In this document: in pieces, positions 7,586 to 13,989 of the stretch
Numbering within the stretch: position 1 is the first letter of the stretch
How the letters are laid out: each line of letters opens with the position of its first letter
Source of the DNA: a virus
Taxonomy: Duplodnaviria > Heunggongvirae > Uroviricota > Caudoviricetes
Strand: one strand, 5' to 3'
Virus record (IMG/VR): IMGVR_UViG_3300029861_000002
Length of the DNA: 64,000 nucleotides
Program-made: the position numbers and the translations under genes
Notes under the pieces: generated by a model
What the model saw: only the letters and a program-made list of their open reading frames with translations
What the model was told of the DNA's origin: nothing
Databases searched by the model: none

Positions 7586-7625
7586 TATATAAAACAATAG
7601 GAAGATAATTTAACTTTATTTGACC
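7586..7625 (-). promoter_or_regulatory. Putative phage late promoter motif, copy 4
   Basis: GGTCAA-N25-TTTTATATA on the minus strand. Confidence 0.65.
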
Positions 7626-8239
7626 TGCGGGTTTCCGTTTAACCGATCTTTTTGCTAACGCTCATAAATTCTTAATCTAAGAGTGCTTTCAGATATGTTT
7701 TGACATTCTTTCGCTAATCTAGTAATTGGCTCATTATGTAGATAGCGTTCATATAATTCATCGAAATTATCTGGAAGATTTTTTCTTGGTCTACCAAATT
7801 TTATTCCTTTCTATTTAGCTGCCGCGATTCCTTCAGCTTGTCGTTGTTTTATATAGGTTCTCTCTTGCTCAGCCTAGAAAGATAAAATTTGTAAGACTAG
7901 ATCTGATATAAAAGTACCCATAATATCTTTACAATATGACGTATCCAATAATGGCATATCCAAAACTTTTATATCTACATTTTTTGTCTTTGTTATTAAA
8001 CTCCATTGTTCAAGAATTTCAGAATAATTACGTCCTAATCTGTCAATGGACTTCAGGAGAATCATATCTCCTGAAGTCACAGTATCTACCATTTTCTAAT
8101 AAGATGGTCTATTAAAATCTTTGCCCGACTGTTTATCTATGAAGATATTTTCTTCTTTAACCCCAGCTTCAGTTAAAGCAAGAATTTGGCGGTCAATATT
8201 TTGATCACGTGAACTAACTCGTGCGTATCCATATAACAC
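7616..8239 (-). CDS. Small serine recombinase (resolvase/invertase), 207 aa
   Basis: With TAG=[13 protein letters not shown]...DKQSGK...KSIDRLGRN...AEQER...[10 protein letters not shown]...FGRP plus C-terminal HTH; 4 TAGs. Confidence 0.92.
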
Positions 8240-8256
8240 CTTTATCACCTCATAGA

Positions 8257-8296
8257 TATATGAAAAATTGGCAATTTTATATAACAAAAATTGCCC
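8257..8296 (-). promoter_or_regulatory. Putative phage late promoter motif, copy 5 (recombinase)
   Basis: GGGCAA-N25-TTTCATATA on the minus strand. Confidence 0.65.
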
Positions 8297-8357
8297 AAAA
8301 TTTTGGCAATTCGGCGTTTTGATTTATATAAAATTTTATTATATAATATATATAAGA

Positions 8358-8606
8358 TTACCAAGGATAATCTCTAGCAATCAAAACATCGCCTTCTGGC
8401 ATTATAAATTTATATCTACCATCTGAATAAACATCATCAATAGAGCTTCCATCTTTTATTAAATACACATTATCTGATATTCCTGCACTCATAGGACTGC
8501 TGTAAACAATTTCTCCAGGGGTTGCTCTTACTGGATAGCCATATTGAAGGCTTGTTTTATCTATTATTGAATACTTTTCCGTCTGAAAAGTTTGGTTAAT
8601 AATCAT
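8358..8606 (-). CDS. Small tail-fibre-associated beta protein
   Basis: Ends ...YKFIMPEGDVLI (FxMP-type beta repeat); coupled to upstream gene by ATGA. Confidence 0.55.
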   Translation of the reverse strand: MIINQTFQTEKYSIIDKTSLQYGYPVRATPGEIVYSSPMSAGISDNVYLIKDGSSIDDVYSDGRYKFIMPEGDVLIARDYPW

Positions 8607-9001
8607 GTTCGCACCTCCTACAAAATTATATATATCTATATATCATTTTCTGGAATTTTTTGGGCTTTAAAAGTTAAACTATTTTCTTGTTGATTTATAC
8701 ACTAAATGCCTGAATTATTATATATATCTATATCTTTTATTGTTGGAGTTGGACAAATTATCTATTTGCCCTCGTCGCTCAATACTCCAATTATATTTAC
8801 TGTTTGAGTATTATTAGACCAAGCTGATGAATATAAAGTTATCAATTTAATAATAGGTTTAAGTGCAGAATTTGCCAATATAGTATTGAACTCCTTTTCA
8901 GTTCCAGTAAACCCTCCTTCTTTAGCTGTTTCATAAGCAGATTTGCCGTTTAATCCAGGCTACCCTATTCCAGCAACCTTTTTCCCATTTATTTTTATCA
9001 T
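8603..9001 (-). CDS. Tail fibre adaptor-like protein
   Basis: With TAG=Q: GLNGKSAYETAKEGGFTGTEKEF motif typical of phage tail proteins, then a W...TQT...LTF...P..DI beta domain. Confidence 0.7.
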
Positions 9002-9023
9002 AGTATAATGTTACCTCCTAAAT

Positions 9024-9662
9024 TTAATTAATGTTACCTCCAGTAGAAGTAATTGTAGCGGGACCAATAATTTTGTATGCTATAACTTGATAATTATTAT
9101 TTATTAATATAGCTCCCAAACTTTCATATGCAGACTGAGGAGTAATTTTAAGTCCTGAAGAAGAACCGGCATTTATAGTTATAATACTATTTTTTATTAC
9201 TTTATAATTATTTTTCTACACTACCCATACTGGCATTGGTGCATTTTCATATTCTATTATTGCCGTACATCCACTTATACCACTCAATGATTCAAATATA
9301 ATATCCACCGTTTCTATAGGGGTTTCTGTTGTAATCTATCCTATCTTATCTGCCATAGTTGAAAAACTATCGGTCGCCGCAGTTTCTACTCCTTTGTCAG
9401 TGACTGCGGTCGCTATTAGGGTTTTGCCCTCACTGACATCGGTAAAAAGCTCATCAATAGCAGATTGAACATTAGTGGCTTTCATGCTTGAAGTTTCATT
9501 GTTGTACTCTATTGATGATGCAGTAAGATTTTCATTATCTTCTTCATCAAATTCAATAGTATAAGGCCCTAACCCTAATGTTTCTCCCATTTCCGCGCTA
9601 CCGCCTCCTGGCACAGTAATAGCATTTTGGTTTTTAACCTATCCAGTTAAAATACATTCCAT
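9024..9662 (-). CDS. Putative tail fibre/receptor-binding protein A
   Basis: With TAG=Q: MECILTGQ...ATNVQSAIDELFTDVSEGKTLIATAVTDKGV...SFSTMADKIGQI, a fibre stem motif, then a beta-rich tip. Confidence 0.7.
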
Positions 9663-11754: not shown

Positions 11755-11774
11755 CACAATAAAATAACAATTCG

Positions 11775-11814
11775 GGACAGTTAAGATTAAATTGTCCAAC
11801 TAAAATTTTATATA
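11775..11814 (+). promoter_or_regulatory. Putative phage late promoter motif, copy 7 (avd-TR-RT)
   Basis: GGACAG-N25-TTTTATATA; overlaps an imperfect GGACA...TGTCC hairpin downstream of the VR. Confidence 0.6.
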
Positions 11815-11835
11815 TTCAAGTGAGGGAGATTTTAA

Positions 11836-12330
11836 ATGTCTGTAAAAGTAAAAGATAGACACATATCAAAGCAAGATTGTCTTTATAAAGCACGCGACTT
11901 AATGGGATATATTTTAGTCTTAACTCGTCCTAGAGAATATGATAAGGATGGAAAACAAATTTGTAAGCCTGGACTGCTTGGAGAGGGTCAACCTCTTCAA
12001 GCGTTCGGGTACGATATAATTAAGTGCGGAAAGGGCTTACATGCTTGCTGTTATGAGGCATGTAAGATAAACTTGAAAGACAAAGAAACCCTTGCAAAGA
12101 GAAATGACTATCATAATAAAGCACTAGAATATTGTGATAGTATATTTCGACAAATCGACCTATGTATTTATTAGTATGCTCAGAACAGCAAAAAGAAAAG
12201 ACGCTCTTTTGAACATCTAGCTAGATTGACAAAGAGAGTAAAAGAGTCAATCCAAGATAGAAAAAATAGAGATAAACTTATAACAGAGCATAGATATTCA
12301 GCTCCTAAGAGATATAGGAGAGGTCGATAA
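11836..12330 (+). CDS. avd: DGR accessory variability determinant (Avd-like), 164 aa
   Basis: Basic helical protein between VR and TR; extended through the TAG at 12172-12174. Confidence 0.75.
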
Positions 12331-12361
12331 TATTTTTCTACGGTTAAGTTCTGTATCTTTC

Positions 12362-12460
12362 GGTCCCGTAACTACAACAACTCGAACAACGTTTGCTTTG
12401 TCGGCAACGATGGATCTGCGAACAACAACAACTACAACAACAGCAACGGGCTCGCGCCGG
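12362..12460 (+). repeat. DGR template repeat (TR)
   Basis: AAC-rich copy of the VR (13 AAC codons) between avd and RT. Confidence 0.97.
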
Positions 12461-12771
12461 ATTAGATGGAGCTATCATGTTGCGAGTTAAGCTGCGGAGC
12501 AGCGCAAACGAGCAACGCCTAAATAGTACCCCGGAGTATATTATTATCCATCTAATTAAGGTTTACTCTGGATTGCACTCACTTTATGTGGGGAAGAGAT
12601 TGAGAGACCATTAAAGAGCTTTGCTCTACAACTATCGAATAATATACTATAGGTAGATCTGCCTTTTCATCTAAGGAGAACTTAACCATTTCACTGAAAA
12701 AGTGGATAAAGTAAGACTGTAGACGTGGAGCTCGAGTAGCTACCACTATAGCTACATGATAAGGAGAAAGT

Positions 12772-13989
12772 ATGTCTGAAATAAAACAAGATACTGCTTT
12801 CGAGCGTTTTTGTAGTTTTGATGCTATGTATGAGGCGTCTTATAAGGTATGTCGAAACGTTCGATGGAAAGATAGTACAATTAATTTTGAAGAGAATAGG
12901 ATAGAAACAATTTTAAAAACAGAAGCTGACCTGCGAGCGTGTGAATACGAACAGCTTGTGTTTAGTTGTTTTTCGATAATCGAACGAGGCAAACCAAGAG
13001 ATATAAGAGCGTGTCATATCAACGACAGACTGGTACAAAATGCGTTATGTGAACAAGTTTTGCTACCAGAATTAACTCCTAGATTTATCTATGATAATTG
13101 TGCAACCCTAAAAGGAAAGGGAATAGACTTCGCTCTGGAAAGAGTTAAGAAACATCTCCAATAGGCTCATAAAGAGTATGGGTTAGGAAAAGATTTTTAT
13201 GGATTAAGAATTGATATACAGAAATATTTTGATTCTATTGACCATGAATCTTTAAAGAAAGCAGCTAAACGGCTAATAAAAGATAAACTTGTTTATTAGT
13301 TATGTTGTTACTTGATAGATACATTTTCTTTTAAGCTAACAAAAGACACTTCGCCTATACCCGGTAAAATATATTACACAAGTAAGCGACACAAGTATGA
13401 AAGAGTTAATGTTACTCATTTCTAGCCTGGTCGTAAGTATTATGAATATGAAAGAAAGAGCCTGGGATTAGGAAGTCAAACGTCACAATTATTCGCATTG
13501 CTAGCATTGAACGAAATTGACCACTTCATAAAAGAAGAGTTACATATTAAGTATTATGGTCGTTATATGGATGATTTATACTTGCTCCATAATGACAGTA
13601 AATACTTGGCCGAATGCGAGAAACAAATAGAAATTCGCTTAAATAAACAAGGATTAAAGATGAATAAGAAGAAAACTACTATCACTAGAATTTCTCCTAT
13701 TCACGCAGATGGCGAACGCCACGCTCCTTTTAAATATTTAAAGTGGAATTTTCATCTCACAGAAACTAATCATATAATACAACTTCCTTTCAAGAAAAAA
13801 GTAGCTCATCAGCGCAGAAAACTAAAGAAAATGTAGGCTTTATGGTTAGATAATAAAATTTCAACTGAAGAAGTTTAGAAATCTTATTAGGGCTGAAGGG
13901 CGCATATTTCTAAAGGAACTTGCTTTTATATAATTCAGGACATGGACAATTATTTTCGTTCATTATTCAAAGGAGTTGAAATAAAGTAA
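12772..13989 (+). CDS. DGR reverse transcriptase; in-frame TGA at 13894-13896 shortens it
   Basis: With TAG=Q: GKPRDI, DRLVQNA, GKGID, DIQKYFDSIDH, LGLGSQTSQ, RYMDD. The frame stays open after the TGA up to TAA 13987-13989, which overlaps the next ATG. Confidence 0.92.

Follow-up and report, generated by a model that had tools for sequence, protein, structure and literature searches.

How does a phage decide which of two divergent operons to transcribe when both begin in the same gap? This question is raised by a 64,000-nucleotide stretch of DNA (IMG/VR record IMGVR_UViG_3300029861_000002; Caudoviricetes), here called the window, which is part of a tailed phage with TAG recoding whose genes are open only when TAG is read as Gln. 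Its structural genes lie on the minus strand and extend as far as 15132, with a hairpin (15086-15131) at their end; a plus-strand block that holds a diversity-generating retroelement (DGR) spans 9988-15087, and minus-strand genes start again at 9662 with a fibre-like left arm. Both blocks begin in the gap 9663-9987, and each therefore likely needs a promoter there. We found that related phages carry a segment of this gap in either direction, and we consider it probable that these 159 bp are a promoter switch, which is flipped by the adjacent serine recombinase and serves either the DGR operon or a swappable fibre operon. That the flip also switches the host range is a claim that we make with lower confidence. 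The elements of the switch are the following:

7616..8239, minus strand: small serine recombinase of 207 amino acids with a GTG start and four in-frame TAG codons read as Gln; the likely invertase of the switch
8258..8298, minus strand: predicted own promoter of the recombinase, a match to the phage motif GGnC[AC]A-N25-TTTnAnAT
9694..9707, plus strand: left crossover site with an AC core at 9701-9702; junction of the flip in contig L098 and, to within one base of the core, of the deletion in L215
9703..9859, unstranded: invertible segment between the cores, reversed in L098 and L136
9715..9755, plus strand: predicted late promoter of the bipartite phage motif, inside the segment and directed toward the DGR target
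9855..9868, minus strand: right crossover site with a GT core at 9860-9861; junction in L098 and L136

The relatives of this phage, several of which lie on contigs of about 140-149 kb from gut metagenomes, provided the direct evidence. The layout of holin, recombinase, left arm, gap and DGR was complete in 26 of the 30 loci that were found via the N-terminus of the DGR target; these loci represent the window's clade and a sister clade that is about 70% identical, and two further clades were recognised, namely L037/L049 (on the same contigs as L149/L164) and L173/L208. An orientation-blind scan, in which the motif was the right site with its outer flank, yielded 79 records, of which 77 face the DGR as in the window (31 of 31 in IMG/VR, 44 of 46 in metagenome_contigs and 2 of 2 in GTDB) and two are flipped; because the collections overlap, the records correspond to 52 distinct upstream haplotypes. 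In L098, both junctions fall inside the 13-nucleotide repeat, and the reversed inner segment differs from that of the unflipped L100 at only 1 of 159 nucleotides, with 3 of 62 and 0 of 40 differences in the flanks. The other flipped record, L136, is a 147-kb contig that starts inside the segment in the flipped state and thus contributes the right junction only. An earlier note on this DNA, which was made from the letters of the window alone, had predicted an inversion of about 160 bp at these repeats that would move a promoter segment and not the fibre genes. The relatives bear this out: the cores are 159 bp apart, the segment is reversed as a unit in L098, both crossover sites are intergenic, and none of 26 relatives has a reversed coding block. 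Assemblies hide a minority orientation, and the ends of contigs are of interest in this respect. Nine contigs end less than 400 nucleotides from the right site, four of them at 55, 99, 99 and 55 nucleotides from the repeat edge (L136, L105, L115 and L038, the last measured from the 14-nucleotide repeat). Coexistence of the two orientations would probably make the de Bruijn graph of an assembly branch at these four places. Three of the four come from the window's own clade, for which the support for flipping is indirect.

The crossover sites have the properties that such an inversion demands. As had been described in the note, the inverted repeat at 9694-9707 / 9855-9868 is perfect over 14 nucleotides, with asymmetric AC and GT cores in the inverted register. 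The pattern AAAGTnnACTTT, which was derived from the two sites themselves, has exactly two matches in the 64-kb window, both at the crossover sites (chance mean 0.15). The note had the reservation that AT-rich 14-mers can match by chance; a perfect inverted repeat of at least 14 nucleotides arose in 2 of 2000 dinucleotide shuffles of the gap. In all four clades the two sites are mutually identical over 12-14 nucleotides, and they are kept though the overall identity is only about 70%. In the most distant clade (L173), where the cores are 184 bp apart, the inner arms of both sites have changed from ACTTT to ACCTT, a concerted change of the kind that would be expected of paired recombination sites. 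The finest available mapping of the cut comes from the L215 deletion, which ends at most one base from the AC core. Two other pairs of candidate crossover sites, a 30-nucleotide imperfect repeat at 7588-7617 / 8670-8699 and the palindromes at 7114-7139 / 8284-8309, were rejected since 0 of 26 relatives were reversed at either. Close to the right site, at about 9840-9851, the segment has a conserved element that is similar to a crossover half-site, with a greater similarity in L173, and that is a candidate accessory binding site for a Sin-type enzyme.

The segment carries the only copy of a predicted phage promoter motif in the gap. Upstream regions in the window have a common two-block motif, GGnC[AC]A-N25-TTTnAnAT, with seven matches at a spacer of 25 versus two across 14 other spacers. 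Of the six matches outside the gap, five precede by 19-31 nucleotides the start of a gene in the same orientation (the holin, the recombinase, a gene of the tail region and two others), and the genes downstream of the copies suggest the label of a late promoter. A matrix that was trained on the six other sites ranked 9715-9755 on the plus strand third of 127,918 positions, at 23.0 bits versus 5.9 bits for the best minus-strand candidate near the gap. Both blocks are kept in the four clades at a near-constant distance from the left core, and the nearest genome available, G001, has six motif matches versus none in the control. The claim that the only late-promoter motif of the gap lies between the sites and points at the DGR target was thus upheld, and the independent leftward promoter for 9662, which according to the note would have spoken against a switch, was not found in the gap by the phage motif or by a sigma-70 scan; the latter yields fewer sites than chance (23 versus 28). 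No further match to the motif was found in the right operon ahead of the DGR reverse transcriptase and template. One top-scoring copy of the motif, at 55269-55309, is possibly an antisense or long-range late promoter. A contig from an RNA library (9777-10185), which starts just past the predicted start and crosses the terminator, was not counted because it is strandless and possibly DNA.

The gene coordinates given in the note for the recombinase (7616-8239), the left arm and the target (9988-11754) are correct when TAG is read as Gln. Small serine recombinases have about 200 residues, an N-terminal catalytic domain with RxS and DRLxR motifs, and a GRPR arm. The product of 7616-8239 matches Pfam Resolvase (E 1.8e-30) and PHROG 125 DNA invertase (E 5e-53) and has the catalytic residues R7, S9, D66, R67 and R70 as well as GRPR at 149-152, which agrees with the note's description of it as a small serine recombinase; the catalytic motifs are intact. 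The comparison with Hin/Gin/Cin invertases that the note draws was refined: by score, the best solved relative is Sin/Bin3 (2r0q; E 1e-35, 126 bits), ahead of gamma-delta (86 bits) and the DNA-invertase entries (60 bits). With the Mpi family model NCBIfam NF009949 it scored 45.8 bits, the cut-off being 272, and its best matches in INPHARED were less than 60% identical. Among 32 IMG/VR contigs, counted one row per contig, the recombinase was intact in 29, frameshifted in one (L021) and altered by Arg7Cys in two, both of which lack the left arm; hence it is intact in 29 of the 30 contigs with a whole left arm. At the metagenome loci it was intact in 10, broken in 2 and undetermined in 34. Most of the left arm has been lost in six lineages (L023, L096, L097, L114, L149/L164 and L215), all of which are without an intact recombinase and face the DGR. 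In L023, L096, L114 and L215, a single deletion took both the arm and the recombinase, L097 has a separate recombinase frameshift, and L149/L164 combine Arg7Cys with a mismatch in the left site. Their common orientation fits the reading that a DGR-facing segment turns the DGR on, as the flipped state would be useless without a left arm. Its position beside the segment and its loss together with the left arm make the recombinase the likely catalyst of the flip.

Between the promoter and the right site lie two further elements:

9767..9779, plus strand: small hairpin with a 5-bp stem
9784..9820, plus strand: intrinsic-terminator-like hairpin with a 13-bp stem and a T run (z = -3.9)

Both stem sides of the small hairpin change between clades and its TAAGATA is invariant, while the sole non-standard pairs of the terminator, in clades 2 and 3, are G-U pairs on the sense strand of the promoter, which points to a function in RNA rather than to a DNA palindrome. 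When the terminator was forbidden, the leader of each of the four clades folded instead into a single extended hairpin at -15 to -20 kcal/mol, which is less stable by 4.5-9, a fold that was matched in 0, 2, 0 and 0 of 500 shuffles of the 5' part of the leader. A search of Rfam gave no match at the gathering score, its three weak matches being far below the threshold. From these folds, the promoter, small hairpin and terminator are predicted to be an attenuated unit that requires read-through. Alternatively, the complementarity in the leader could be the trace of a hairpin duplication. Farther on, the ribosome-binding site of the DGR target, whose start is TTG, is paired within a long hairpin at 9927-9976 (z -2.9), which may damp translation; the sister clade is without this stretch.

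The left arm consists of three genes:

9024..9662, minus strand: left arm gene 1, fibre-like, 212 amino acids, with a stalk like that of tail fibres; residues 61-114 match the tail-fibre family PHROG 26419 (E 9e-12)
8603..9001, minus strand: left arm gene 2, 132 amino acids, a weak match to an unnamed PHROG
8358..8606, minus strand: left arm gene 3, 82 amino acids, without a family match

The note had called this module fixed, which is right in that it has no DGR target here and wrong in that it is a highly variable cassette that is swapped across strains. In the alignment of gene 1 homologues the N-terminal half is kept and the C-terminal tips are swapped, one homologue has Mtd_N, and across relatives the first left gene is a mosaic that ranges from about 100 to 730 amino acids. 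In L120 (122-2305, minus strand) and L128 (137-2305, minus strand), the left gene has an internal lectin-type region and a VR-like end, that is, one like the variable repeat of a DGR target; the region was recognised as DUF6273 in L120 (E 4e-4) and by its VR likeness in L128, and it was apparently captured from a DGR target. These VR-like stretches were rejected as second DGR targets, as they differ from the template repeats of related loci at many non-adenine positions. Left gene 1 and the DGR target both begin with a CILxxQ peptide and have similar ribosome-binding regions, and some left-type homologues start with MPKCILSGQ; the peptide may be a docking element that is shared by both arms. 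Both arms likely bind host receptors. Dockerin-like repeats were seen near the N-terminus of the left-arm fibres of L005, L113 and L120, above the Pfam cut-off only in L113. At the end of the left arm, the AT-rich stretch 8317-8356 matches elsewhere in contigs of the same samples, where sequences are often joined at it; possibly it is a promoter repeat with dispersed copies that also bounds the swapped cassettes.

The right arm is a complete DGR operon:

9988..11754, plus strand: DGR target of 588 amino acids with Ig-like Big_3 repeats and a C-terminal DUF6273, a predicted adhesin
11639..11740, plus strand: variable repeat (VR), compared with the template repeat (TR)
11836..12330, plus strand: Avd-like accessory gene, assigned by position and size, without a family match
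12362..12463, plus strand: TR, with 16 of 16 VR mismatches at TR adenines
12772..13896, plus strand: DGR reverse transcriptase (RVT_1, E 1.5e-16; PHROG 1423, E 4e-77)
13989..15087, plus strand: remainder of the right operon, with a DUF4376/tail-associated gene and a membrane-protein gene, ending at the hairpin 15086-15131 that is common to the convergent structural genes

The DGR is genuine: TR and VR differ at 16 of 102 positions, all of which are TR adenines. Among 27 relatives, 20 TR/VR pairs could be called, of which 16 were adenine-only, two nearly so and two out of register. Both this signature and the order of target, avd, TR and reverse transcriptase are those of a Bordetella BPP-1-type DGR. 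DGR homing hairpins usually sit downstream of the VR, and a hairpin was found in that place at 11776-11798. In runs X1, X8 and X9 the contigs are interrupted inside the VR (window 11662-11724), as would be expected if the DGR diversifies its target within samples. DUF6273, which lies at residues 432-587 of the 588 in the target, is described as C-type-lectin-like in the available part of 10.1101/2024.10.15.618418. Tentaclins, as far as the accessible text of PMC10743442 describes them, have an N-terminal C-lectin domain that is followed by Ig domains; the target resembles them in combining DUF6273 with Ig domains, but its lectin domain is C-terminal, so that it falls outside the tentaclin definition.

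Several results weigh against a working switch. Flipped segments are rare (0 of 31 IMG/VR, 2 of 46 metagenome and 0 of 2 GTDB records) and both come from the sister clade; a scan of IMG/VR with the left flank found 0 of 32 true loci flipped, after its matches L150, L152 and L170 had been removed as chance; and the inversion joint was not seen in the Logan contigs of eight runs (X1, X5, X8, X9, X11, X17, X18 and X19, with depths that include 224 and 61), a weak negative because contigs lose rare forms. Sin/Bin3 is, by the titles of its PDB entries, a resolvase family, L021 has a frameshifted recombinase beside a whole left arm, and independent recombinase lesions were seen in only two of the six loss lineages, each of the other four having lost arm and recombinase in a single deletion. 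The motif was defined post hoc from upstream regions that included the gap region, the gap copy of G001 fails the strict pattern, and the copy at 55269-55309 points opposite to the flanking plus-strand genes. The rarity of the flips and the resolvase kinship, together with the related palindromes at 7114-7139 and 8284-8309, would suit an account in which template switching at a short inverted repeat, amplification chimeras or phage annealing proteins produced the flips as rare accidents or artefacts, a regulator of two divergent operons binds the repeats, and the recombinase is a resolvase that works elsewhere, for example at the palindromes near its own promoter. We judge this improbable. Both junctions of L098 are exact, and as its 13-nucleotide repeat is shorter than the usual assembly word, reads presumably spanned the joints; the flipped records come from two independent samples; the core of the sites is still asymmetric and in the inverted register, and both sites changed together in L173; the deletion in L215 runs to the core; none of 26 relatives is reversed between the palindromes at 7114 and 8309; and the scans gave no leftward promoter that could serve the left arm.

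A further difficulty, which had already been raised in the note, is the strong terminator that stands between the promoter and both arms, the leader having a value of -24.7 kcal/mol. The hairpin at 9784-9820 is indeed present, but it is part of the flipped unit; because it travels with the promoter it favours neither arm and does not refute a switch. It could instead be the active part of the segment, as an invertible terminator that blocks whichever arm it faces while the promoters lie outside, in which case the window would show the DGR in its off state. Such an element would draw on the one-way strength of the terminator and on a sigma-70-like site at 8319-8347 that points right, toward the gap, but the phage promoter motif stands within the segment, and its distance from the left core is constant in four clades. 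Outside the segment no promoter could be recognised for the left arm, the sigma-70 scan that produced the 8319 site performs below chance, and L023 and L215, which have lost the 8319 region with the left arm, keep the window orientation, all 17 differences between the VR and the TR of L023 being at adenines. An invertible terminator therefore seems highly improbable to us. A more serious objection, unlikely in our estimation but not to be dismissed lightly, accepts the switch and questions its purpose: the DGR target could be a decoration or mucus adhesin and the left protein an accessory fibre, so that the flip would alter an accessory trait and not the host range. DGR targets with Ig repeats and C-lectin domains are hypothesised, in the accessible text of PMC10743442, to bind bacterial receptors or intestinal cells; the window has other fibre-like genes (15132-15914); the left arm is dispensable in six lineages; and the AlphaFold model of the 212-residue left protein (mean predicted local distance difference test score 33) was unusable. 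The mosaic, fibre-like build of the left proteins with their swapped tips, the captured lectin-type regions of L120 and L128, and the N-terminal peptide common to both arms argue for alternative receptor-binding proteins. A promoter switch between two operons remains our preferred interpretation.

To our knowledge, the known phage inversion switches rearrange fibre coding sequence, and promoter invertons are known from bacteria. In the H segment of Salmonella, a promoter-bearing segment is flipped at sites with 2-bp cores so that one of two surface proteins is expressed. The present locus resembles the Hin system in that a serine recombinase would flip a segment with a predicted promoter at 2-bp-core sites between alternative surface proteins; unlike it, the phage segment of about 160 bp is free of genes and does not contain the recombinase, and each orientation faces its own operon without a repressor step. 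The hix/gix-type sites of Din enzymes have 26 bp; here the identity between the sites extends over only 12-14 nucleotides, and the match scores place the enzyme outside the Din group (Hin/Gin/Cin). Hin is presented as a serine invertase that acts at hix in the available text of PMC11868660. According to the accessible part of PMC10403206, Mpi of Bacteroides inverts small promoter segments for surface variation, with UpxY antitermination downstream. The phage locus shares with Mpi the promoter inversion, here a proposed one, by a serine recombinase for surface variation; however, Mpi is one global enzyme that turns many chromosomal loci on or off, whereas here a linked enzyme would operate a single either/or switch whose site occurs only twice in the window. 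In the Mu G/Gin and P1 C/Cin systems and in tail-fibre shufflons (BV01-like; Rin), inversion beside fibre genes changes the adhesin, as the available portions of PMC13596623, PMC8778435 and PMC9881135 describe. There, coding cassettes are turned round and a constant N-terminus receives different C-termini; the phage switch splices no gene and would choose between whole operons, one of them a complete DGR. In its manner of working it would be like Hin and Mpi, and in its purpose like Gin/Cin and the shufflons, while belonging to none of the Din, Mpi or coding-cassette groups. In the literature that we searched, which was seen partly and covered few subscription papers, we found no description of a promoter inverton in a phage that stands between two operons for adhesins or that controls a DGR. 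Viral invertons are called poorly understood in the accessible text of PMC13501310, and the present case is not among the 16 candidates given there.

As regards the phage itself, INPHARED contained no DNA match to window 9000-11800. We did not assign it to the phAss-1 group, for which the available text of PMC10607447 mentions no DGR, recombinase or inversion, and the labels of the metagenome-assembled genome bins of two records (Eubacterium sp. and Oscillospiraceae) were not taken as evidence of the host. In L208, which lies on the contig of L173, only one of the eight listed genes of the region has an in-frame TAG, a codon that is frequent in the window's clade; the intensity of recoding therefore varies among clades that have the switch. 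A six-gene minus-strand cassette follows the holin at window 4061-7038.

If the locus works as we propose, the recombinase would be a late enzyme, as its gene has TAG codons and is preceded by a copy of the promoter motif. It would be made at that stage of infection, bind the half-sites, synapse the two sites, cut at the cores and turn the segment round in a minority of the genomes, the progeny of which would express the other operon in the next round. The motif in the segment would be the sole promoter for both arms, with the promoter, small hairpin and terminator moving as a block, so that read-through or antitermination would be needed either way. Facing the DGR operon would be the common state and facing the fibre operon the rare one, most genomes being kept DGR-facing by selection on the prevailing host or by a biased flip rate. 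The first gene products of both arms would compete via CILxxQ for one docking site, and virions would carry mostly one kind, which would result in a coarse two-way choice that is layered on the fine mutagenesis by the DGR. Since the reverse transcriptase and the TR lie in the right operon without a further promoter motif, the flip may gate mutagenesis too. This complete scheme of two-tier host-range control, of which we saw no account in the papers searched and in which a late recombinase flips a portable promoter-attenuator cassette between the whole DGR operon and a horizontally swapped fibre operon, the products dock at one site and the flip turns DGR mutagenesis on and off, is advanced tentatively, with slightly less than even confidence.

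If confirmed, the switch would mean that a phage selects one of two whole adhesin operons, one of them a DGR, by a promoter inverton of the bacterial kind and so mirrors the phase variation of its hosts. A coarse switch would then be coupled to fine mutagenesis, and with the reverse transcriptase and TR in the switched operon it could gate the activity of the DGR. As the element is small (160 bp and one enzyme of 207 amino acids) and naturally locked variants exist, it is directly testable without phage culture.

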